From IMG/VR virus record IMGVR_UViG_3300050821_014397: 64,000 bases of DNA; one strand, written 5' to 3'. Position numbers and translations under genes: made by a program. The stretch comes from an uncultured virus (IMG/VR IMGVR_UViG_3300050821_014397) (taxonomy: Duplodnaviria > Heunggongvirae > Uroviricota > Caudoviricetes). This document shows, one piece after another, positions 3,651 through 20,130 of the stretch (positions are counted from its first letter, which is position 1; every line of letters begins with the position of its first letter). Under the pieces are notes generated by a model that saw nothing but the letters and a program-made list of their open reading frames with translations, was not told the origin of the DNA and did no database searches.

Positions 3651-3872
3651 TCACCGCTCTTCCACAAACGGCACGATGGTCAGCCGGTGCCCGTGATGCT
3701 TGTCGGTTTCGTAGCTGCACCCGGGAAGGTGCAGCCAGTAGAATTCATCGCAGCTGCGGCAGTAGTCTTTCGCCACGTGGCAATCGCAACCCGGCATGTG
3801 CCAGCCGAAGCCGGAGAACGAGCATGCCATGGAGAGCAGCTCCGCAACCTGTCGGTCTTCGAGAAATGGCAT
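3651..3872 (-). CDS. Cys/His-rich hypothetical protein
   Basis: WHMPGC and LHLPGC internal repeat, CxxC. Confidence 0.55.
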   Translation of the reverse strand: MPFLEDRQVAELLSMACSFSGFGWHMPGCDCHVAKDYCRSCDEFYWLHLPGCSYETDKHHGHRLTIVPFVEER

Positions 3873-5526: not shown

Positions 5527-5612
5527 CGGTTCGTGTCCTTTCGTGGAAATCCCCGCCACGAATCCGTTTTTGGCCCACCCGTTCGATTAATCCTTCGGCC
5601 AATATGCTGGCG

Positions 5613-5641
5613 ATTATAGATCCGGTTTTTAAGAATGACAA
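5613..5641 (-). promoter_or_regulatory. Sigma70-type promoter
   Basis: TTGTCA-17 nt-TATAAT on minus strand in an AT-rich intergenic gap. Confidence 0.75.
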
Positions 5642-5950: not shown

Positions 5951-6120
5951 TTGGTTCCTGATTTCTTTGTGCGTTCCGGCTCGGCGATCTGCCCTTGCGT
6001 CGTATCGGCGGCGGCAGCCCCGGTCGGCGGCCACACTTGCACCCACGACCCTTGACGCCACACGAACCGGCGGCCATCGGAGCAGACCACCTGACCGTTG
6101 AAGCTCAACTCACATTCCAT
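5947..6120 (-). CDS. Hypothetical protein (not in ORF track)
   Basis: MECELSFNGQVVCSDGRRFVW..., overlaps neighbours at both ends. Confidence 0.5.
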   Translation of the reverse strand: MECELSFNGQVVCSDGRRFVWRQGSWVQVWPPTGAAAADTTQGQIAEPERTKKSGTK

Positions 6121-7178: not shown

Positions 7179-8860
7179 TCCGCTCCAATCAAACAGGGTT
7201 CAAGCCAAATGATCTTGCGCTCCTTGCGGCCCACTCCGACCGGCTGGTTGCGGTAGTGACCCCGACGCCAGTGCAGGCGCGGGCTCGCGTGCGTGCCGGT
7301 CGCGCGCGCGCCGGTCACGAACTGGCCGTCGGCGATGCGCGCCACCTCGCGCTTGAACTTGTACCGCGCCCCGATCACGTTGGGGGTCCAGAACTCGCGC
7401 GCCTTCTCGGCCTTGCCGACGCGCTTCACCAGCTTGCCCTTCTCGACCAGCTGGGGCCGGGCGTTCATGGCCAGGATGGTGCCGAACAGGATCACGCCCA
7501 TTTTCTCCAGAAACTCACTGTCCAGCTCGGTCAGGTCGGAGTCCATGAAGTTGCTCTTCTCGACCTTGGGCGCGGCTTCGCCGGGCGCGCGGTAGAACAG
7601 GTTGTTGAGGCGCAGGGTGCGCCGCCGGTTGGCCGTCAGGATCGAGTCGTACCAGATCATCGTGTCCGGGCACGCGCCCAGCATGACGAAACTGTCGTTG
7701 GGCAGGACCGACGCCGGGATGCCGGGCCAGGGCGACGGGTTGTCACCCTTCCTGACCCGCGACCACATCAGCATGGCCACCTCGCCGTCCTTGGGATGCA
7801 CCAGCGCGCCTTTGGGGAGCATCAGCATGCCGCTCTCGTAAGGCAGGTCCAGGTCCAGCCAGTCGATGTCGTTGTCGAAGTCGGTGCGCAGCACGGCCTC
7901 GAGCAGGTCCGGGGCCAGGAAGAACATCGGCATGCGGTGCTCCCGCATGTAGGCGAGGCCGGGCATCATCAGCCGGTAGGCGGTGGCGCTCCGGTGATAG
8001 CCGTAGCGCAGCATCTCGGCCACCACGTTCGCGATCATGACCGCCATGTTGCGCGGCGAGTGGTAGCGCCCGGTGTGCTCGTAGACCTTCGGATAGAAGG
8101 CCCGGATCATGCCGGGGAAGGCCTCCTCCAGTATGTCCTCGACCGCCTTGAGGATCGGCCTGCCGGTGATCTGGCGGATCAGGTCCTTGGCGTCCTCGTT
8201 CAACTCCTGGGCCTGCTTGTGGAGATCGGGGTCGCCCCCACGCCCAGGCAAGCCAGCGACGAGGTCGTCACGCTGCTTGGCGGTGCGCTGGATCTTGGCG
8301 GCCAGCGGGAGGTCGCGCACTTCGTTGGCGTCCCTGGCCACCCGCCGCTCGTCGAGCACGCGCACCTTGCCCGCGCCGCTCTCGCGCTGGTCGAGCGGCT
8401 CATGGATGAGCGAAGCGATCCCGGCGATCATGCCGTCCAGCGTCTCCAGCTCGGCAGCGAACTCGCCGGACGGGAGCAGTTCGCGCCGCAGGGCGACGGC
8501 TTCCGCGCCCGCCTTCGCGAGCCACGCCTGGATCTGCGCTTCCGTCGCTGGCGTAATCGGGTCGATGTCGGCTACGATGGCGCGGTTCTCACTAGACAGG
8601 GCGAACGCAACCTTCTCCATCGTCTCCGTCAGGTTCGTGATGAACCGGAGCGTCTCCTTGCGCGCGAATTGGAGCACGACGGGATAGACCTGATGTACAG
8701 AGCCCTTGAGCTTGAGGCCGCCCTCGTTGAGTTCCCCCTTGAGTTCCCCCATGAACTCCACCCGCTCGTCACCCCGGCCTGCGGCGATGAGCGCCTTCAG
8801 GCTGGTCACGATATCGCCCATCGCCGTGCCGTCTTCGATGATGTGGATCTGGTCGGTCAT
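7175..8860 (-). CDS. Large hypothetical protein with C-terminal PRLHWRRGHYR motif
   Basis: HASPRLHWRRGHYRNQ..IIW motif seen in many uncharacterised phage proteins. Confidence 0.75.
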   Translation of the reverse strand: MTDQIHIIEDGTAMGDIVTSLKALIAAGRGDERVEFMGELKGELNEGGLKLKGSVHQVYPVVLQFARKETLRFITNLTETMEKVAFALSSENRAIVADIDPITPATEAQIQAWLAKAGAEAVALRRELLPSGEFAAELETLDGMIAGIASLIHEPLDQRESGAGKVRVLDERRVARDANEVRDLPLAAKIQRTAKQRDDLVAGLPGRGGDPDLHKQAQELNEDAKDLIRQITGRPILKAVEDILEEAFPGMIRAFYPKVYEHTGRYHSPRNMAVMIANVVAEMLRYGYHRSATAYRLMMPGLAYMREHRMPMFFLAPDLLEAVLRTDFDNDIDWLDLDLPYESGMLMLPKGALVHPKDGEVAMLMWSRVRKGDNPSPWPGIPASVLPNDSFVMLGACPDTMIWYDSILTANRRRTLRLNNLFYRAPGEAAPKVEKSNFMDSDLTELDSEFLEKMGVILFGTILAMNARPQLVEKGKLVKRVGKAEKAREFWTPNVIGARYKFKREVARIADGQFVTGARATGTHASPRLHWRRGHYRNQPVGVGRKERKIIWLEPCLIGAE

Positions 8861-11452: not shown

Positions 11453-11869
11453 TCAAAATGGCTCGAAGTGACCCGGCAGCGTATCGCCTTCCGCGTCCAC
11501 CGGCCAGCCGCTCGGAGTGTCGTTGAACTCCAGGTCGCCGTCGGTCCACAAGCCCCCCTCGTAGCGCAGCCGGTAGCCGTCGGCGGTCACGAAGGTCAGG
11601 CCGGGCTGGCCGCCGAAGGAGCCGCGCCGCTCGAAGGCCGTCTCGGCGTCCTGCGCGGCCTCCTCGCGCCGCTCCTGAATGGCCAGCACGCGCCGCAGCA
11701 GGCCGTAGGCGTCCTCGCCTTCGAGCAGGCTGCCGAAGGCCAGCGGGTCGCCCTTGATGTTCTCCAGGTCCTGCGCGGTGGCGAAGATGTCGCCGCGCGC
11801 GTCACGCTGCTCGCTGGCCCATTCGACCAGCGCCTCTTCCAGCAGTTCCCTCAGTTCCCGTTTCGTCAT
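11453..11869 (-). CDS. Hypothetical protein
   Basis: SD GGGAGAGACGACG-ATG. Confidence 0.7.
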   Translation of the reverse strand: MTKRELRELLEEALVEWASEQRDARGDIFATAQDLENIKGDPLAFGSLLEGEDAYGLLRRVLAIQERREEAAQDAETAFERRGSFGGQPGLTFVTADGYRLRYEGGLWTDGDLEFNDTPSGWPVDAEGDTLPGHFEPF

Positions 11870-12147
11870 CGTCGTCTCTCCCTTGCCTGTTCCCAGGTGT
11901 CAATCACCACGCGTTCCTTCTTCGCCCGCGCCTCCACGTCCGTTACCTGCCTCCCGGCCACGATCTCGGTGTGCGAGGAGTAAGGCCCGGTCACGTAGCT
12001 GAAGTCCGCGACCTCATACAGCCGCCCGGCCACGTTCACGTAGACCGGGTCCGGTGCCCAGGAATCGAAGCTCGATCCCTTGCAGGGCGCGACAAGCTCG
12101 CGCAGGAACCGCAGTGAAATAGTGCCGTCGTTTCGTTGGTTGCTCAT
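11866..12147 (-). CDS. Hypothetical protein
   Basis: SD AGGAG before MSNQRND. Confidence 0.6.
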   Translation of the reverse strand: MSNQRNDGTISLRFLRELVAPCKGSSFDSWAPDPVYVNVAGRLYEVADFSYVTGPYSSHTEIVAGRQVTDVEARAKKERVVIDTWEQARERRR

Positions 12148-12181
12148 GGATCTCCTGTGGAAAATCTGTGGATCTCTCTCG

Positions 12182-12335
12182 GCCAGCGCCCGCACGAGGC
12201 GGTCACTCACGTCCCGGCGGGGCGTCCCCCGATGACTTCCCGGTGTTTCACCGTCCCTACTGTCCACCGCGCTCGGACTTACGTGGATGCTTTCAGTGGG
12301 GCAGGACGCGAGCGCCGCCTCGTGGGGGCACTGGC
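12182..12335 (-). ncRNA. Candidate structured ncRNA (long closing stem, multi-hairpin core)
   Basis: 12182-12216 pairs with 12302-12335 (about 34 bp including G-U); internal GAAA-capped hairpin. Confidence 0.5.
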
Positions 12336-12342
12336 AATACGT

Positions 12343-12399
12343 GGCCGGGCTTGGGAACCGGCCTGCCGCATTAGGGCCGCGTAGCGGCCCCCCTCTGCG
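12343..12399 (-). ncRNA. Twister ribozyme (P5-type permutation)
   Basis: CGCA-GAGGG-P1 hairpin-UAA-UGCG-GC-GGCCGG-UUCCC-AAGC-CCGGCC. Confidence 0.85.
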
Positions 12400-12603
12400 T
12401 GACTACTTCTGTCCCGGCTCGCGGGTCAACAGCGCGTACAGGGCCTTCTCCTCGTCGCGCAGCATGCGCGCTTCCAAGGGCGGCGCGTCCGCGATCTTGC
12501 TTCCGCACCTCGTGCCAGCGCTTGGCGGCTTTGCCGTGCCAGCGGCACTCGGTGTTCCAGCACTCGGGCCAGCCGCCCTTCAGGTCACACTTGCTTTGTC
12601 GTT

Positions 12604-12813
12604 TCATCGTCTGGGTCTCCTCTGCGTCTGCTTGCTCGGCGGCACGCTGGTGTAGAACCCGCGCGCGGCCACGAAGCCGGTCGTCGCGGGCCATAGCTCG
12701 TGCGCGCCCGCCTCGCGCGCCTCCTCGTTGCGCTCGGTCAATTCCTGTACCGCCCGGTCGATCAGGTCGCACAGTTCGCCAGCGGTCATCTGCTCTAGTT
12801 GCTCGTTGTTCAT
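12604..12813 (-). CDS. Hypothetical protein
   Basis: SD GAGGGAGACGACGACG-ATG. Confidence 0.6.
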   Translation of the reverse strand: MNNEQLEQMTAGELCDLIDRAVQELTERNEEAREAGAHELWPATTGFVAARGFYTSVPPSKQTQRRPRR

Positions 12814-12831
12814 CGTCGTCGTCTCCCTCGT

Positions 12832-13215
12832 TTAGAACGGAACGTCGTCGTCGTCCCAGTGCACCATCACCGGCGGTGGCGCGTTCACCGGCCCATGGAC
12901 CGGATGCGCCCGCTGGTACTCTTCCAGGCGCGTGTAGTGGCGCTTGGCGTGACCGCGCTCGTGGATCTGCTCGCACCACATCTCGAACAGGCCCCAGGCG
13001 TTCTCCATCTCGTACTGCCCCAGGATGCGTCCGGCGGTCTCGGGCAGGTCATAGCGGGCCAGCAGGCGTTCCATCTCCGCGCCGGTCAGGTGGCGCGCCG
13101 TGTGCACCAGCCGGTGCTCTTGCTCGTAGGTCATCGTCATGTCGTCGTCCTCGTCCTCGTCCTCGTTGTCGTCATGGTCCACGAATTCCGTCATGGGCAG
13201 GTAGCGCATCGTCAT
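12832..13215 (-). CDS. Hypothetical protein with acidic tract and DDDVPF tail
   Basis: SSB-like acidic C-terminus WDDDDVPF. Confidence 0.6.
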   Translation of the reverse strand: MTMRYLPMTEFVDHDDNEDEDEDDDMTMTYEQEHRLVHTARHLTGAEMERLLARYDLPETAGRILGQYEMENAWGLFEMWCEQIHERGHAKRHYTRLEEYQRAHPVHGPVNAPPPVMVHWDDDDVPF

Positions 13216-13397
13216 TCCCCCTCGCTCAGTTCCCACTGGTAGGATTCGCGGGCCACCCTACGGTCTTCGATGGTGCACTCCAAGGCCACCATCGAGCGCT
13301 TCCATGCGCGTGCCGCCTGCTCCGCCATGCGCTTGGTCCGGTACTCGCCCGGAAGCTGGCCGCAATCATGGCCGTTGTCCCAATTGATTTTCCACAT
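13212..13397 (-). CDS. Hypothetical protein
   Basis: Conserved leader motif before ATG. Confidence 0.6.
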   Translation of the reverse strand: MWKINWDNGHDCGQLPGEYRTKRMAEQAARAWKRSMVALECTIEDRRVARESYQWELSEGE

Positions 13398-13433
13398 CGT
13401 CGTTTCTCCCTTGCTCGTATTGTTCAGACTACC

Positions 13434-14282
13434 TCAGGCGCACTCACTCCATGCCGCCCCGTCCACTGGGCCAGCGGGCACATAGCCAGCGGCCAGCGTG
13501 CGCTCGATCTGCACCAGCGGCAAGTGCTGCTTGAAGTCATGGCCGATGGCGCGCTCCACCTTGACGTACTCGCCGAGTAACTCCCGGTTGTGATAGCCCG
13601 CGAGTAACAGCGCCTCGGGCGGCGCGTAGAAGCAGAACACGCACGACAACCTCGGCATGCCCAGGTCATAGGCGCGGTGGTACTCGAGGCCGCGCGATTT
13701 GATGTGCAGCCATACCTCACTCTCGCTCCACCCATGGATCGGCAGCCAGCGCGTCACCTCGCGCCGCGTCAGGTTGGTCGCCGGGTCGTCGCTCACCGGC
13801 TCCATGTCGCGCCGCTTGGTCGACTCCTGCGCGCGCAACCCCAGGCAGTTGAGGATGCGCACGCGCCGGTAGGGCCGCGCCGCCACGCTCCTGCCGCGCG
13901 TCAGGGCGAGCCGTTCGACGGTCTCGTTGACCAGTTGGGTCATCAGGCCGGTCACCGGCTTCGTCTTGTGATCGCTCGTGCAGTAGCGCGTGCTGTAGCC
14001 CGGCCACTTGCCGCGCGCCGCCACATGATCGAGCAGGTCATTCTGCTCGCGCCGCACCACCTCAAAGCGCAGGCCGTAGCGCTTGGCCTGCCGCTCCGCC
14101 AGTTCGCGCGTGCCGCTCCACTCCACGCGTCCGAGATCCGCGTGCACCACCACCAGCCGCTCGCGGTTGACGCCCGCCTCGTCAGCGAGGGTCACGAGAT
14201 AGTCCAGCATGGCGAGCGAGTCCTTGCCAGCGGAAGTGTTGATCAGAATCCAGTCGTACGTGCGCAGGTCCGGTGTCGTCAT
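13434..14282 (-). CDS. Phosphoadenosine phosphosulfate reductase family protein (CysH/DndC-like)
   Basis: SAGKDS PP-loop, RYCTSDHK, GLRAQES..R, PIHGW, RLSCVFC. Confidence 0.85.
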   Translation of the reverse strand: MTTPDLRTYDWILINTSAGKDSLAMLDYLVTLADEAGVNRERLVVVHADLGRVEWSGTRELAERQAKRYGLRFEVVRREQNDLLDHVAARGKWPGYSTRYCTSDHKTKPVTGLMTQLVNETVERLALTRGRSVAARPYRRVRILNCLGLRAQESTKRRDMEPVSDDPATNLTRREVTRWLPIHGWSESEVWLHIKSRGLEYHRAYDLGMPRLSCVFCFYAPPEALLLAGYHNRELLGEYVKVERAIGHDFKQHLPLVQIERTLAAGYVPAGPVDGAAWSECA

Positions 14283-14283
14283 G

Positions 14284-14562
14284 TCAGTTCAGTTCCTTTC
14301 GGTCAGCCCCGGTCATGGGCTGGACTTCGTCATCGAACGGGTAGCCACTGGCCGCGTTCTGGTCGAACGACTCAATCAGGTCGTCCATCTGGGCGCGCGT
14401 CAACAGGCCCAGGCGCGGCCCGTCCTCGATGCGCGCCGCCATCAACTGCCAGCCGTCGTCGTCCTTGGCCACGTACAGCCGCAGACTCCGCTGCACGCCG
14501 TCAGCGAAGACGTGCTGCCAGCTTTCCACCACGTGGGTGGGCTTCAGGTGTTCGTTCGTCAT
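14284..14562 (-). CDS. Hypothetical protein
   Basis: MTNEHLKP..., SD GAGGAG. Confidence 0.55.
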   Translation of the reverse strand: MTNEHLKPTHVVESWQHVFADGVQRSLRLYVAKDDDGWQLMAARIEDGPRLGLLTRAQMDDLIESFDQNAASGYPFDDEVQPMTGADRKELN

Positions 14563-14762
14563 TTGCTCTCCTCGGTGGTCTCCGCCACCACGCGGTAGCG
14601 CTTCTGGGGGGCATCGCCCACGATGTAGCCGCGCGTGTACGAGTACTCGTGGCGGATGTTGCGGTAGGGTGATTCGGGGCCAGCCGCGAGGCGCGCAGTG
14701 GCCACCGCGTGCTCGGCCTCGCGCAGGGTCAGGCCGTCGCGCAGGATCGTCGTCGTCGTCAT
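14559..14762 (-). CDS. Hypothetical protein
   Basis: ORF coupled to neighbours. Confidence 0.55.
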   Translation of the reverse strand: MTTTTILRDGLTLREAEHAVATARLAAGPESPYRNIRHEYSYTRGYIVGDAPQKRYRVVAETTEESK

Positions 14763-14764
14763 GG

Positions 14765-15133
14765 TTAGCTCCGTTCCTCCAGCTTCTCGGCCAGCGCGTT
14801 TGCACCGGCCAGCACGGCCTCGATGTGCTCCGCGCCGCTGTAGTCGTTGATCACATCCCAGCCGTCGTTGCCGTACACGAGCCGGACCCAGCCGTGCTCG
14901 CGTTCCAGCCCGACAATCCGGCGTTCGAGGTGCAGCACGTCCTCGTCAGTGTTGATCAGCGCGTCCAACACGGCCTTGCGGCTGGTGGAGCGGGTCACGG
15001 CGTACTCGTCGCCGCCATCGTCCACGCTCAGCGTGTAGCCAGCCTTCAGGGCGTCAGTGACGATCCTCTTCACAATGGCCACTTCCATGGCTTGGCGCTT
15101 GCGCACCGTTTCGTTCTCGGGGTTCAGGTACAT
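14765..15133 (-). CDS. Hypothetical phage protein
   Basis: GWVRLVYGNDGWDVINDY; SD GAAGGAG. Confidence 0.7.
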   Translation of the reverse strand: MYLNPENETVRKRQAMEVAIVKRIVTDALKAGYTLSVDDGGDEYAVTRSTSRKAVLDALINTDEDVLHLERRIVGLEREHGWVRLVYGNDGWDVINDYSGAEHIEAVLAGANALAEKLEERS

Positions 15134-15155
15134 GTTCGTCGTCTCCTTCTAGCGT

Positions 15156-15220
15156 GGCCGGGGTTGTGACCGGCCTCCCGCATTCCAGCCGGGGCACGTG
15201 GCCCCGGGCTGCACTCTGCG
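15156..15220 (-). ncRNA. Twister ribozyme (P5-type permutation)
   Basis: CGCA-GAGUG-P1-GAA-UGCG-GG-GGCCGG-UCAC-AACC-CCGGCC; GG/CC compensatory pseudoknot. Confidence 0.8.
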
Positions 15221-15222
15221 TG

Positions 15223-16014
15223 TTAGCTCTTCAGCTTCTTCATCTCCTCGGCGAGGGTCCACAGTGCCTTGTTCAGGCGCGTGTTCTCGCTGATGCCTTC
15301 GACCGGGCGCACGCGGGCGCGACGGCCAGAGGTCTGGTTGCGGTAGCGCGTGCCGCCCTGGGTCAGGTTCTCCTGGGCCACGTTGAACGTGTTCCACAGC
15401 GTGGGCTCGGCGTCCTCGGTGCGGCGCGGGCGAACGACGGCCTCGGGCGTGATCGGCGCGGCGTCGTCGTAGCGGAGGGCCAGCGCGGCGGTGGCGAACG
15501 CGGCGCGCTCGGGCGGCGCGAGGCGCAGGTTGCGGAACGACTCCACCGACTCGAGCGCGCGCGGCATCTGGTCGATGACTTCGAAGCTGGCCTCGATGAT
15601 GCCGTCAGCCGTGCCCCGGTGTGGCACTTTGATCGCCGCCACGATGCCGTCGTCGACCATCAGGCCGTTCGCGCAGACGTAGCGGTACAGGCCGCCCGCC
15701 ACCTCGTACGCGCTCGCGCCGTCGTGGCTGTTCGTCACCACCACCTCGGGCACGATGCCGCCCACGCGGGCGACGGCTTGCGCCATGTCCAACTGGCGGA
15801 AGCGGATCTGGTGGCGGGTGAACTCGGCTTTGCCCGGGACGCGCGTCCGGCTCTGCACGGCCTTGACCGGCACGAAGCCCTCGTGGCGGAGCTTTTCGAC
15901 CACCTCGATGGTGGGGATGAAGGCGTACTTGCCGGACATCTTGTGCCAGGGTTCGCTGGCGAAAATGGAAGGCGCGAAAGCGCGCAGTTGATCGTTGGTC
16001 AGTACGTTGGTCAT
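15223..16014 (-). CDS. DUF932 domain protein
   Basis: APSIFA..P...S.KY.FIPT, NSHDG.S, GLYRYVCANGL, TLWNTFNVAQENL, LNKALW. Confidence 0.9.
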   Translation of the reverse strand: MTNVLTNDQLRAFAPSIFASEPWHKMSGKYAFIPTIEVVEKLRHEGFVPVKAVQSRTRVPGKAEFTRHQIRFRQLDMAQAVARVGGIVPEVVVTNSHDGASAYEVAGGLYRYVCANGLMVDDGIVAAIKVPHRGTADGIIEASFEVIDQMPRALESVESFRNLRLAPPERAAFATAALALRYDDAAPITPEAVVRPRRTEDAEPTLWNTFNVAQENLTQGGTRYRNQTSGRRARVRPVEGISENTRLNKALWTLAEEMKKLKS

Positions 16015-16052
16015 GGTGTTTTCCTTTGGTTGCGTTCTGGGGGATTTGCGTG

Positions 16053-16111
16053 AGCCGGGCTTGTGACCGGCTGGCCGCATTACGCCCGGGCGAAGCCCGG
16101 GTCACTCTGCG
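16053..16111 (-). ncRNA. Twister ribozyme (P5-type permutation)
   Basis: CGCA-GAGUG-P1 (UUCG loop)-UAA-UGCG-GC-AGCCGG-UCAC-AAGC-CCGGCU. Confidence 0.85.
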
Positions 16112-16112
16112 A

Positions 16113-16463
16113 TTAGTGGGAAGGCGTGACGCTCCACCCGCACCCGGTCAAGCGCCGGTACTCGCGGCTGGCGTCGTCCATGGCGGCGCGAGAGGCGAGC
16201 ACGCGCCGGTAGTGGTCGACCTTGACGTCGACGTCGTGGTCGGTGTCCTCGGTGGTCACCACCTCGTACCATGCGAACGTGGTCGGTGTGGGCTGGCCCT
16301 CGCGGTACATCACCTCGTACCGCGCCGCGCTCGGGTTACAGGGGTCACAGACCCACCAGTGCGGCCAGAAGGCCACTTTGACCACCGGCTCGCCGGTAGC
16401 GTCCGGCACGATCAGGCGCAACGGCTGGCATCCGCCCGTGCGGTCGGTCAGGGTGTAGGCCAT
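16113..16463 (-). CDS. Hypothetical protein
   Basis: ORF ends immediately before a twister. Confidence 0.6.
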   Translation of the reverse strand: MAYTLTDRTGGCQPLRLIVPDATGEPVVKVAFWPHWWVCDPCNPSAARYEVMYREGQPTPTTFAWYEVVTTEDTDHDVDVKVDHYRRVLASRAAMDDASREYRRLTGCGWSVTPSH

Positions 16464-16642
16464 CAGCGCACCCCTTCCACGAGCCTAGTGAACGCCATCT
16501 CGGCGTCGTTGGTCTCCTCCAGGCGCTTGGCCCAGTGGGCGAAGTCGCCCTGGACCTCGTGCGAGAACAGCCAGTTGGAAAGCAGTTCCTTGCGGCGGGT
16601 GGCGAAGGCCACGCGGGTGTTTACTACGTTGTCGAATGTCAT
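16463..16642 (-). CDS. Hypothetical protein (not in ORF track)
   Basis: MTFDNVVNTRVAF..., SD AGAGGAGACGACGACG. Confidence 0.6.
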   Translation of the reverse strand: MTFDNVVNTRVAFATRRKELLSNWLFSHEVQGDFAHWAKRLEETNDAEMAFTRLVEGVR

Positions 16643-16657
16643 CGTCGTCGTCTCCTC

Positions 16658-16918
16658 TTACATCACGCGCTGGCCGTCGCGGTAGTCGATCCAGCGGCTT
16701 TCCCCGTCTTCCACAATCTCGATCTCGGCGGTGGCGTCATGGGCCAGCATCAAAGCCATCTCGATGGCCGAGACGTGCGAGTACATGGCGGTCTCGCTAT
16801 GGCCGGTGTACAGCGTCACCACCCGTTTGCCGTTCCAGCATTCCAGGTTCTCGTTCCTCTGCGGGACCGTGCCGCGCGAGGCGTGCAGGTTCACTGCGAA
16901 GCGCTTGATCTTCTTCAT
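16658..16918 (-). CDS. Hypothetical protein
   Basis: SD GAGGAG. Confidence 0.6.
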   Translation of the reverse strand: MKKIKRFAVNLHASRGTVPQRNENLECWNGKRVVTLYTGHSETAMYSHVSAIEMALMLAHDATAEIEIVEDGESRWIDYRDGQRVM

Positions 16919-16933
16919 GGTTGGTCTCCTCGG

Positions 16934-17086
16934 TTAGCTCACGCGCAGGTTCTTGCGCACCATCAGCTCGTTGTCCAGGGCCAGTTCAAACTCACGCCCG
17001 TAGCGGGCGTAGCGCCCGCGCTTGACCACGCTGATCAGCGTAGCGGTGGCGATCTTCTCGAAGGGTCTGTTGTTCGTCGTCGTCAT
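16934..17086 (-). CDS. Small hypothetical protein, first gene of the early operon
   Basis: MTTTNNRPFEK..., SD AAAGGAG. Confidence 0.6.
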   Translation of the reverse strand: MTTTNNRPFEKIATATLISVVKRGRYARYGREFELALDNELMVRKNLRVS

Positions 17087-17104
17087 GTTGTCTCCTTTGC
17101 GTTT

Positions 17105-17174
17105 GCGCGGGCTTGTGAACCGCGCGTGCCGCATTACGCGCTGGCCTTTTCAGGCTGGCCAGCGTCACTCTGCG
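17105..17174 (-). ncRNA. Twister ribozyme (P5-type permutation)
   Basis: CGCA-GAGUG-P1-UAA-UGCG-GC-GCGCGG-UUCAC-AAGC-CCGCGC. Confidence 0.85.
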
Positions 17175-17191
17175 ATTTGGTTGATTGGTTT

Positions 17192-17276
17192 GAAAGGCCG
17201 GGACCATGCGTTTATAAGTGGATTCTCTTTTCAGAGAGTCAGGTGTGTTTCAACCTGTTCACTATCCCGGTCTTTC
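17192..17276 (-). ncRNA. Structured multi-stem RNA element in the early leader
   Basis: 12-bp closing stem GAAAGACCGGGA/UCCCGGCCUUUC with two internal GAAA-containing hairpins. Confidence 0.45.
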
Positions 17277-17509
17277 GTTTTCCATTTGCGATGTGGACCT
17301 GTCACGTCCACTCCCGTCGCTTTTCGCGTGTACCTTGGGCGGTCAGATGATCTTCGGGACTTACGTTCGCCGCTCTCGGGGGCTTCGCGCGCTGGTCACA
17401 CCAACGGCACGCGATCCTACACACGGTCACCTACGTCCTGGTCAAAACCTACGGGATGGTCAACGGCCTACTCGCCCTACTGCCTGGGTTTTCGCTACTT
17501 CGCTCGGGG

Positions 17510-17529
17510 CTATTCAGTTGTCAAGGATC
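17510..17529 (-). promoter_or_regulatory. boxA-like antitermination element
   Basis: GATCCTTGACAACTGAATAG resembles rRNA-leader boxA sequences. Confidence 0.5.
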
Positions 17530-17646
17530 ACGCGGTCCAAACGGCGGAAAGCTCTCGGGTCTGGCAGGGAGTGGTCAAACCCACGCCCCCTGGCCGGTTG
17601 GTCATCCCTATGACCGGCGTTCAGCCCCTCGCTTCGTTCCGTTCTC

Positions 17647-17799
17647 GCCTACACTCTATAAGATGCGCTGGCTGAGTCATTGGTTACCGCATTTCACCCC
17701 AGCCTCGCTTTTCTTTTGTTTTCGAAGATCTCGCAGGCCGTTGCCGTTTCGCTCAACTGCCTACATATACTAAGATGCGCTGGCTACGTCAGTGGTTAC
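17647..17799 (-). promoter_or_regulatory. Tandem 41-bp direct repeats, putative ECF-type early promoters
   Basis: 17647-17687 vs 17759-17799, 33/41 identical; GTAACC...CGCATCTTA on minus strand. Confidence 0.55.
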
Positions 17800-17953
17800 A
17801 TGGTTTCGAAAAGAATTCCGGGAGCGGGGTGAAATCCTGGGCCGGTGGCTTAGCGGTTATTTCGGATCTTGATATGCGGCTTTACCGGGGAAGCGGTGCG
17901 GGTTGGGGGAAAGGGCCGGACCTGGAGTGCGGCTGGTTGCGGCGGAAACCGGC

Positions 17954-18779: not shown

Positions 18780-19060
18780 TCGGAAAAATGAAGGGTCTCG
18801 CGGAAACCCTCGGAAGGGTGAAGGGGGGGGGGGTGTGTGTGGGTAAAGGTAAAATAGGGTATCTTAATATCTCTTTTAAATATATATATATATATATATA
18901 TAAACGGAAAAGCGGTAACCAGCTGCGGCTCAGTAACTTACACCTTCTCACTTTCTCGCCACCCTTCCCTTTTCCGTTCTTCCGCATATTCCACCAACCC
19001 CCTTGTCACCTCTTCCTACCCTTCGAAATACCGTGAGACCCCCACCCCCTCCCCCCCTTC
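18780..19060. other. Putative replication origin
   Basis: (TA)11 at 18881-18902 flanked by oppositely oriented GAAGGG(T) / (A)CCCTTC motifs, at the end of the replication operon. Confidence 0.5.
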
Positions 19061-19388
19061 AGTCGTATTCCCCCATCTTCGCAAGGGCGGCGCGCCGGAT
19101 GGTATCGATTGCCACATCGAACTCCGCGAGGGAATGGATGACGAAGCAGGCGGCACCGGCGCGTTTCCAGGCCTCGAGGCGGGCACACTGCAGGGGGGTG
19201 GGAGACTGGCCCGGGCGCTTCAATTCCATCTCGAAATGGTGGCCGTGCCAGCAGCCGAAAACATCGGGATCGCCGGAGACGGTGAAGACCGAGCCGTGTC
19301 GTTTGCGCCACTGGAGCGCCGGGTCGGCCTGGGCGAGCTTCTTGAGGCGGCGGGTGATCGAGGCGAGGAGCTGGCTCTCGAGGGGCAT
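19059..19388 (-). CDS. VRR-NUC domain nuclease
   Basis: GDPDVFG...EMELKRPG..PTPLQ, PD-(D/E)xK pattern. Confidence 0.85.
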   Translation of the reverse strand: MPLESQLLASITRRLKKLAQADPALQWRKRHGSVFTVSGDPDVFGCWHGHHFEMELKRPGQSPTPLQCARLEAWKRAGAACFVIHSLAEFDVAIDTIRRAALAKMGEYD

Positions 19389-19404
19389 CCGATTTCAGAG
19401 ATTC

Positions 19405-19474
19405 TTATCTTATGCTATGTCATGTAATGAGATGGGATCGGAAGCGATCTGAGCTGATGGTATCGGATCGTATC
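19405..19474 (-). repeat. Pentamer array 3 (14 x [G/C]NT-NN)
   Basis: GATAC GATCC GATAC CATCA GCTCA GATCG CTTCC GATCC CATCT CATTA CATGA CATAG CATAA GATAA. Confidence 0.9.
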
Positions 19475-19481
19475 GAAATCT

Positions 19482-19958
19482 TCATCCCTCCCACTTCGGC
19501 GGCTTGGCGTCGATGCGCTTCGGGCTGGCGGCGGTGGCCAGCTTGCGCGACATCGACAGGAAGGTCTTGCTCAGTTCGCTGAGCACCGCCGAGAAGGCCA
19601 CGTGGGTGACGCGCTGCTCCTGGGTCAGCTTCTCGTCCTGCACGTAGTCCACGATATCTTTGGCCAGCCCGACCTTGCGCTTGCCCTGCTTGACGCGCCG
19701 CTGGGAGGCCTTGATGTGCGCCTGGGGCTCGATCACCGTGTAGCCGTAGCCCGGCTGGTTTTCGAACCACAGGCGGCGCGCCTGCTGCATCTCGGCGCGG
19801 AATTTGTAGAACTGCTGCCGCCCGCGCGGAGTGCGGATGTCCACTCCAGCCAGCTCGCCCAGCACCTCGTAGCTGAAGTTGGTCTCGCCCCGGTCGAGCA
19901 GCGGGCCGATTCCGTCCAGCAGGCGCTTCCACTCGGGATGGCGATAGGTTTGTCCCAT
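19482..19958 (-). CDS. Hypothetical protein embedded between pentamer arrays (wHTH-like N-terminus)
   Basis: FSYEVLGELAGVD...GYGYTV followed by a helical, basic C-terminus. Confidence 0.75.
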   Translation of the reverse strand: MGQTYRHPEWKRLLDGIGPLLDRGETNFSYEVLGELAGVDIRTPRGRQQFYKFRAEMQQARRLWFENQPGYGYTVIEPQAHIKASQRRVKQGKRKVGLAKDIVDYVQDEKLTQEQRVTHVAFSAVLSELSKTFLSMSRKLATAASPKRIDAKPPKWEG

Positions 19959-19969
19959 AAAAGAGTCTC

Positions 19970-20039
19970 TTATCTTAAGTTATCGGATGAAATGACAACG
20001 TATCCTAGCGCAGCATATGCAATCATATGGCAGCATATG
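19970..20039 (-). repeat. Pentamer array 2 (14 x [G/C]NT-NN)
   Basis: CATAT GCTGC CATAT GATTG CATAT GCTGC GCTAG GATAC GTTGT CATTT CATCC GATAA CTTAA GATAA. Confidence 0.9.
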
Positions 20040-20065
20040 AGAACTCTCAAACCTTGGGAAAAGCC

Positions 20066-20130
20066 TTATCTTATCTGACGCCATGAAATCCGATGCCAGC
20101 TGAGCTTATGCGATGGCACCTTATCGCACG
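20066..20130 (-). repeat. Pentamer array 1 (13 x [G/C]NT-NN)
   Basis: CGTGC GATAA GGTGC CATCG CATAA GCTCA GCTGG CATCG GATTT CATGG CGTCA GATAA GATAA. Confidence 0.9.

Follow-up and report, generated by a model that had tools for sequence, protein, structure and literature searches.

What are the four related elements that lie between genes on the minus strand of this stretch of phage DNA, and what would they do to the RNA that carries them? The stretch, called the window throughout, comprises 64,000 nucleotides (nt) of an uncultured, tailed soil phage (IMG/VR record IMGVR_UViG_3300050821_014397). A first-pass annotation, made from its letters without database searches, proposed that the elements are permuted twister ribozymes through which the phage processes its own early polycistronic RNA. 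On the evidence presented here, the four elements are type-P5 twister ribozymes, with catalysis predicted rather than measured. Judging from the sequence, we consider it likely that all four are functional and that they lie within one leftward multi-gene message in which each would cut itself.

The whole window was searched with Rfam cmscan at gathering thresholds against a comparison set of 4227 families, in which the Twister-P5 family (RF02684, clan CL00120) has a cut-off of 37.6 bits. This search returned exactly four matches, all of them to Twister-P5, all on the minus strand and all covering model positions 1-58 of 58, with E-values ranging from 9.3e-09 for the copy that starts at 12399 to 7.2e-06 for the copy that starts at 17174. 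The copies are numbered here in the direction of transcription. Scores are also given from R1, a covariance model built from 19 gapless type-P5 examples that encodes stems only and leaves the pseudoknots out.

17107..17174, minus strand: Twister-P5 copy 1, the first in the direction of transcription (Rfam 44.0 bits, E 7.2e-06; R1 41.6 bits); predicted cut U17136/A17135; stem P4 reaches 17105; extra U in loop L4
16055..16111, minus strand: Twister-P5 copy 2 (Rfam 52.5 bits; R1 61.3 bits); predicted cut U16082/A16081; the sole fully canonical copy
15158..15220, minus strand: Twister-P5 copy 3 (Rfam 48.2 bits); predicted cut G15185/A15184; pseudoknot T2 is GG/CC, not GC/GC
12345..12399, minus strand: Twister-P5 copy 4 (Rfam 55.2 bits, E 9.3e-09; R1 52.6 bits); predicted cut U12373/A12372; pseudoknot T1 is GAGGG/UCCC; extra U in loop L4

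The Rfam matches, together with maps of open reading frames (ORFs) and of GC content at third codon positions (GC3), confirm the positions given in the first-pass annotation and its placement of the elements on the minus (coding) strand. Its coordinates extend 2 nt beyond the Rfam match at each 3' end, and in the folds these extra nucleotides lengthen P4 to 6 base pairs (bp). Counting along the alignments places each of its four predicted cuts (12373/12372, 15185/15184, 16082/16081 and 17136/17135) at the N-A step on the 3' side of P1. At E<=1, the window held just two further Rfam matches, both to microRNA families and meaningless, and no match to the hammerhead or any other self-cleaving ribozyme class. 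The 6.5-Mb, 538-contig assembly that holds the window contains these four Twister-P5 matches only, and no such match was found in any of 60 related genomes or 14 control genomes.

The twister ribozyme was reportedly first described by Roth et al. in 2014. In the part of PMC5408937 that defines the class, pseudoknot T1 connects the internal loop L1 with loop L4 through three Watson-Crick pairs and pseudoknot T2 connects a conserved GC of L2 with two L4 nucleotides; the A at the cut site is given as highly conserved and the nucleotide before it as less conserved, and a P5 helix is treated as optional (section 8). The class also has some ten strongly conserved nucleotides in L1 and L4, and its self-cleavage is assisted by Mg2+ and yields 2',3'-cyclic phosphate and 5'-OH ends. 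All four window copies have the same order of parts, namely P2 3' strand, L1, P1 hairpin, cut site, P2 5' strand, L2 and P4. The permutation is thereby confirmed in every copy: a loop closes P1, and the ends of the element fall at the P5 position; by eye, no flanking P5 helix is apparent in the four. Stems P1, P2 and P4 are formed in all copies, both in the Rfam alignments and in unconstrained minimum free energy (MFE) folds, and the formula CGCA-GAG(U/G)G-[P1 hairpin]-NAA-UGCG-G(C/G)-[P4] from the first-pass annotation holds in all four alignments.

Within this shared architecture, the copies differ from one another in informative places. The covarying pseudoknots that had been noticed by eye are real in the Rfam alignments: T1 is GAGUG/UCAC in three copies and GAGGG/UCCC in copy 4, and T2 is GC/GC in three copies and GG/CC in copy 3. 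The first pair of P4 is G-C in copy 1 and C-G in the other three. The step at the cut reads UAA in three copies and GAA in one, and P2 is identical in all four. The P1 stems are 7-10 bp long, and in folds of the predicted 5' products they form terminal hairpins (-14.7 to -19.3 kcal/mol) that stop 0-3 nt short of the new 3' end. The copies diverge in the sequence and length of P1 and in the linker between L2 and P4, with pairings and core nucleotides kept. Because P1 and the pre-P4 linker differ throughout and the core is shared, the four copies are not recent duplicates, and this confinement of variation to unconstrained parts is the pattern that would be expected under selection for the fold.

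Covariation was examined across a broader set of phage sequences. A scan of IMG/VR for the conserved 3' half of the element, in which covarying positions were left free, gave at least 124 stretches, and 80 loci were fetched. Alignment to R1 comprised 121 type-P5 sequences from 78 of these loci plus the window, amounting to 94 distinct rows. Over the distinct rows, the variable pair of T1 was UA in 67, GC in 14, CG in 6, AU in 2, UG in 1 and something else in 3, and the variable pair of T2 was CG in 69 of the 94, GC in 22 and something else in 3. Taken together, 97.4% of cells were paired, compared to 77.9% in shuffles, with none of 500 shuffles reaching the observed values, and sliding the partners by 1-3 columns brought pairing down to 24-50%. 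For P1, P2 and P4, stems to which this alignment was itself fitted, pairing over the 94 rows was 96.9-99.5% with double-sided changes in 12 of 14 pairs. Both pseudoknots covary, so the RNA fold, and not the DNA sequence alone, is under selection. The permuted (type-P5) identity put forward in the first-pass annotation therefore has full support from the Rfam covariance-model check and from the covariation of two pseudoknots over 94 distinct phage sequences.

The same alignment shows how typical the window copies are. At every column conserved in at least 97% of the 121 sequences, all four carry the consensus base, and the A after the cut is invariant (120 of 120 aligned sequences). Compared with the RF02684 class, nothing in the window copies is categorically different; their peculiarities are the extra U in loop L4 of copies 1 and 4, which is rare (4 of 94 distinct aligned rows), and the G before the cut in copy 3, which is rare as well (1 of 93 rows).

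Placement of the four copies relative to the genes gives a second line of evidence. The left arm of the phage, on the minus strand, encodes a SNF2-type helicase, a primase-polymerase/AAA protein, DUF932, a PAPS-reductase-like protein, DUF6874 and many small orphan ORFs, and the right arm encodes terminase, portal, major head protein, tail fibres and integrase; the phage is probably temperate. From 1.9 to 25.6 kb, the ORF and GC3 maps show minus to be the coding strand, so that the ribozymes are sense to the genes. Copies 2, 3 and 4 each begin shortly past a stop codon, at a distance of 1 nt (stop of ORF 16113-16463), 2 nt (DUF932 stop) and 4 nt respectively. A start codon with its own ribosome-binding site (RBS) follows 20, 40 and 24 nt downstream of copies 1, 2 and 3. 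Between 17086 and 12147, each intergenic gap longer than 40 nt in the ORF map contains a twister, and the remaining genes abut or overlap. The pieces predicted between neighbouring cuts are 17135-16082 (segment A, 1054 nt), 16081-15185 (segment B, 897 nt) and 15184-12373 (segment C, 2812 nt). The features that frame the copies are as follows.

17175..17953, minus strand: gene-free stretch of 779 nt upstream of copy 1, with no ORF of coding GC3; presumed leader or promoter region
16934..17086, minus strand: ORF of 50 amino acids (aa), with ATG 20 nt past copy 1 and RBS AAGGAGA; first of four small genes in segment A
15223..16014, minus strand: DUF932 gene, 263 aa (Pfam PF06067, E 9.4e-38; phrog_12094, E 1.7e-73), with ATG 40 nt past copy 2; sole gene between copies 2 and 3 (segment B)
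14765..15133, minus strand: gene of 122 aa (phrog_5680, E 1.3e-20), with ATG 24 nt past copy 3; first gene of segment C
13434-14282, minus strand: PAPS-reductase-like gene in segment C (PF01507 over 13437-14282)
12182..12335, minus strand: long, very stable hairpin that starts 10 nt past copy 4, in the 197-nt spacer 12148-12344
11866..12147, minus strand: likely first gene after copy 4, with ATG 12147 and RBS GGAG, judged from GC3 profile and translation

Neither the 50-aa ORF nor gene 11866..12147 matched a PHROGs or Pfam family. The frame of the latter gene is open back to a GTG at 12267.

The same arrangement recurs in other phages. Spacing was counted over 103 distinct type-P5 sequences among the matches listed (ribozyme plus 30 nt on each side), the four from the window included. 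In 92 of the 103, an ORF of 35 codons or more, with its start codon and an RBS-like motif, follows within 130 nt downstream, at a median distance of 27 nt (quartiles 22-33). On the upstream side, a stop triplet lies within 15 nt in 52 of the 67 non-self type-P5 pattern matches listed. Multiple copies were checked with Rfam on 16 loci chosen because R1 showed more than one copy in each, and 53 of the resulting 54 matches were Twister-P5. After merging of overlapping loci, these form arrays of 6, 6, 4, 4, 4, 3 and 3 copies plus several of 2, always on one strand per contig; among the IMG/VR examples, loci L063 and L086 have 6 copies each and L065 and L129 have 4 each. Genes downstream of the phage twisters are mostly small orphans, 72 of 88 being without a Pfam family at E<=1e-4, and the remainder include an N6_N4 DNA methylase, a pentapeptide-repeat protein, an AcrIC5 anti-CRISPR, a DNA ligase and helix-turn-helix proteins. 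One of the 16 loci, L117 from an uncultured viral contig, also has an HDV-like ribozyme at 5572-5640 (RF02682; 48.4 bits, cut-off 44), which shares its strand with two Twister-P5 copies.

A cultured example was found by BLAST of copy 2 against cultured phages. The Tunturiibacter phage Tunturi_4 (PP885687.1; locus L178), a phage of Acidobacteriota, has four Twister-P5 copies at Rfam level, scoring 62.2, 54.9, 49.6 and 48.2 bits and all on the gene strand:

2843-2900, gene strand: Twister-P5 in gap gp88/87, followed by gp87
3766-3827, gene strand: Twister-P5 in gap gp87/86, followed by gp86
6001-6058, gene strand: Twister-P5 in gap gp81/80, followed by gp80
7583-7643, gene strand: Twister-P5 in gap gp79/78, followed by gp78 (DNA methyltransferase)

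One of these copies carries an A-U variant of a T2 pair. The four twisters are unannotated in the Tunturi_4 record, and the words "ribozyme" and "twister" have no occurrence in the main text of the Tunturi_4 paper (PMC11924767). Like the window, the other Twister-P5 arrays have several intergenic copies on one strand over a few kb, each shortly ahead of an RBS and associated with small accessory genes. Unlike one another, they belong to different phages with unrelated flanking genes, and copy 4 of the window departs from them in preceding a hairpin and not an RBS. Many phages share this stereotyped succession of twister, RBS and small accessory gene, and the motif, its covariation and its placement are equally established. 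A literature search that did not reach subscription papers found no paper describing arrays of type-P5 twisters in phage operons.

What, then, would these ribozymes do? Once transcribed, each twister would fold into P2, loop-closed P1, P4 and the pseudoknots T1 and T2, and would cut itself at the N-A step after P1 in the nascent multi-gene RNA. The upstream RNA would then end with the GC-rich P1 hairpin and a 2',3'-cyclic phosphate, and the downstream RNA would begin with a 5'-OH and the P4 hairpin, followed for three of the four copies by an RBS and a start codon 20-40 nt further on. The message would be split into a leader and four coding segments, holding four small genes, DUF932 alone, about nine genes including the PAPS-reductase-like gene, and the rest. 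Hairpin ends with a 5'-OH or a cyclic phosphate are poor substrates for 3' exonucleases and for the 5'-monophosphate-dependent RNase E and RNase J, and segment-specific stability and context-independent translation would therefore be expected. The stability and translation of each segment would be freed from its upstream context with no host nuclease needed. Self-processing of this kind is plausible from the anatomy of the locus, in which the copies share the strand of the genes, stops lie 1-4 nt upstream and, for three of four copies, RBS and start lie 20-40 nt downstream. We infer co-transcription of the segments, cleavage in the cell and an effect on stability and translation.

Two well-known systems help to place this proposal. 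In the early mRNA of phage T7, host RNase III cuts long double-stranded stems and leaves 5'-phosphate and 3'-OH ends. The likeness to T7 lies in the intercistronic cuts within a polycistronic phage message and in the hairpin that protects the upstream piece at its 3' end, whereas the window RNA would cut itself and yield a 5'-OH and a 2',3'-cyclic phosphate. The twisters themselves were considered as RNase III sites of the T7 type and rejected, P1 stems of 7-10 bp being too short; the one part of the operon that looks like a possible RNase III substrate is the hairpin at 12182-12335. RiboJ is an engineered insulator of the hammerhead type, in which a self-cleaving ribozyme stands upstream of the RBS. 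There, as here, a ribozyme directly upstream of the RBS removes upstream RNA and leaves a defined leader that starts with a hairpin; the window element differs in being a natural twister, with a predicted effect on expression. The first-pass annotation implied that such self-processing was new, which overstated the case, since a role of this kind had already been suggested and the same arrays are present in many viral contigs: section 13 of the 2019 review PMC6765202 describes bacterial twister and hammerhead ribozymes near phage genes, terms the processing of polycistronic transcripts "suggested" and calls the roles "largely elusive".

A separate pattern was seen downstream of P4. The exact CGCA of the P2 3' strand recurs within 30 nt past P4 in 29 of 67 type-P5 twisters from other loci (shuffle mean 8.3, maximum 19; control windows 8-15) and clusters 10-12 nt past P4; window copies 1 and 2 show it as well. 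In MFE folds of the 3' products of all four copies, the new 5' end pairs with a downstream CGCA. When G-U pairs were allowed, a helix of at least 4 bp was present in 62 of 99 sequences compared to 43-72 of 97-98 in coding controls, which is no excess; helices of at least 6 bp alone were in excess, with 14 compared to 2-7. A downstream CGCA clamp on the new 5' end was not adopted, as these statistics are mixed and related sequences inflate the counts.

Several observations weigh against the proposal that four functional twisters cut one early message. Three of the four copies have rare features: copies 1 and 4 carry the additional U in L4, and copy 3 has G before the cut. Copy 4 is without an adjoining RBS, and the 197-nt hairpin spacer precedes the likely ATG at 12147. 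A consensus scan gave no useful promoter or terminator, so the limits of the transcript and its early timing are assumed. No RNA run is found among the listed sequencing runs that share words with the phage, and none of these holds more than 8% of the sampled words; the only holders are two DNA soil-metagenome runs, with shares of 0.08 and 0.06. Finally, in a comparison of 49 viral loci around DUF932 homologues, made with Rfam on the 15 closest and with R1 on the 48 other than the phage itself, synteny lent the proposal no support. Among the 15, Rfam found twisters only in locus L005, which is the same phage, and none of the 48 loci from other viral contigs has a twister (R1; Rfam on the 14 closest). 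The ribozymes are thus dispensable for such a DUF932 neighbourhood. DUF932 is the sole gene of the stretch common to all 48 relatives' loci, DUF6874 being common to 2 and one other gene to 1, and the twisters therefore sit in a mosaic accessory region in which they are gained and lost. Two candidate ribozymes in these relatives were set aside as unsupported: a Hammerhead_3 match at 6407-6474 of L006 is sub-threshold (26.8 bits against a cut-off of 48.5, E 0.15), and a hammerhead-like core noticed by eye at 5783-5830 of L007 scores 16.1 bits and has the wrong topology. The latter core follows closely on a stop codon, and a good TTGACA/GATACT promoter lies downstream of it.

The rare deviations in three copies, together with the lack of an RNA run among the runs matching the phage, would also suit genuine twisters of which some or all are catalytically dead or too slow, serving as structured spacers (for example as hairpins that slow exonucleases) or having no role, and the part of PMC8782182 that deals with the matter states that many computationally predicted ribozyme candidates failed to cleave when tested. 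We regard this as unlikely: all four copies score above the curated threshold over the full model and keep the invariant core positions, the compensatory changes seen in T1, T2 and P4 among the window copies speak for ongoing selection on an active fold, and the nucleotide before the cut, where copy 3 deviates, is the less conserved one (PMC5408937, section 8). The mosaic neighbourhood raises a different explanation, in which the role is played at the level of DNA or genome architecture: the conserved core of about 27 nt plus the RBS would mark the boundary of a portable cassette and offer short homology for exchange between phages, with cleavage acting as an insulator that makes any cassette functional whatever its surroundings. 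DUF932 as the shared gene of the 48 relatives, bracketed here by copies 2 and 3, speaks for such a cassette, as do the tightly fixed distance to the start codon and the downstream genes, which are mostly small orphans (72 of 88 without Pfam) and otherwise include accessory and anti-defence types. It is nevertheless a rather improbable account, since a single mosaic junction in the window is anecdotal, the DUF932 relatives show that such junctions do not need twisters, and the covariation at the RNA level points to selection on the RNA fold.

The ends left by cleavage allow for yet another outcome, in which twister-flanked segments are joined into circular, exonuclease-proof mRNAs, either through reversal of the cleavage or by a ligase of the RtcB type. 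Twister products carry the kind of ends that RtcB joins, as exploited in the engineered Tornado system. Segments 17135-16082, 16081-15185 and 15184-12373 each carry complementary twister halves at their ends, P2 is identical in the four copies, and T1 would be compatible in two of the three hybrid combinations. That compatibility is at chance level, however, given that three copies share one T1, and the third segment would have a G-A mismatch; a search for RtcB (PF01139) gave no match in the assembly holding the phage, which is 93.9% complete, compared to 10 of 14 control genomes that were positive, and none was seen among the phage ORFs scanned. Circularisation is accordingly very improbable. 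As for a chance resemblance, or a repeat that is no ribozyme at all (an element like a repetitive extragenic palindrome, a terminator or a protein-binding site), nothing but the GC-rich composition of the genome as a whole speaks for it, and its likelihood is negligible: E-values of 9e-09 to 7e-06 were obtained against 4227 Rfam families, the 14 control and 60 related genomes gave no match, the pseudoknots covary and no T-run follows P1. Self-cleavage of four functional twisters within one leftward message is the reading that we prefer.

The sequence around the array contains other features. In the presumed leader, the ORFs within 17175..17953 have no Pfam match, and no sigma-70 consensus site was found in 17175-17953. 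A 41-nt direct repeat in this region (17647-17687 and 17759-17799, 80% identity) has a promoter-like position. The leader at 17175-17650 was considered as a structured RNA and rejected, its fold z-score being merely -1.6. At the other end of the array, the hairpin at 12182-12335 is the most unusual local feature. Its 21-nt arms, 12182-12202 and 12315-12335, are 90% complementary and carry a small junction on top, and the spacer that holds it has an MFE of -104.6 kcal/mol and a z-score of -6.38, with none of 200 dinucleotide shuffles as stable. It matches no Rfam family; possible roles are those of an RNase III site, a stabiliser or an element that acts in the DNA. Just upstream of copy 4, the small gene at 12371-12607 on the minus strand switches its high-GC3 frame near 12540-12520: the frame that starts at ATG 12607 extends to a TAA at 12371-12373 inside the twister, and the second frame stops at a TAG at 12404-12406. 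Candidate explanations are a frameshift, a sequencing error and a pair of small genes that overlap.

A sliding 120-nt fold scan of the minus strand from 1900 to 25700 revealed no further outstanding element of the operon, and its best window was an AT-rich palindrome near 18900. This palindrome, (TA)n at 18868-18917, lies within 18819-19061, where an inverted repeat of G-runs and C-runs with 33-nt arms surrounds it. The phage is present in its assembly as two contigs of 19,018 and 48,563 bases, and assembly G000 breaks in this region, with a contig overlap at 19009-19017; the region may be origin-like or hard to assemble. Between small genes at 19404-20130, four copies of a 31-nt repeat of the CTTATCTTAT type, with 65-74% identity to the reference copy, look like iterons or operators.

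The role of self-cleaving ribozymes in bacteria and phages is an open question, and the window adds one clean case to it, in which four diverged, intact copies occupy every large gap of one operon. The finding leaves knowledge of twisters themselves unchanged, and the layout is not unique but recurs in many phages. As the processing idea is not new (suggested in section 13 of PMC6765202), the value of the locus lies in a further example and in a pointer to a cultured system: Tunturi_4 on Tunturiibacter empetritectus M8UP27 is a cultured phage-host pair with the same type of array, which makes the question testable at the bench. Were the circular-mRNA reading true, these arrays would be a natural counterpart of engineered twister-based circular-RNA systems. 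On a milder reading, the combination of twister and RBS could be a natural insulator that makes accessory cassettes portable between phages.

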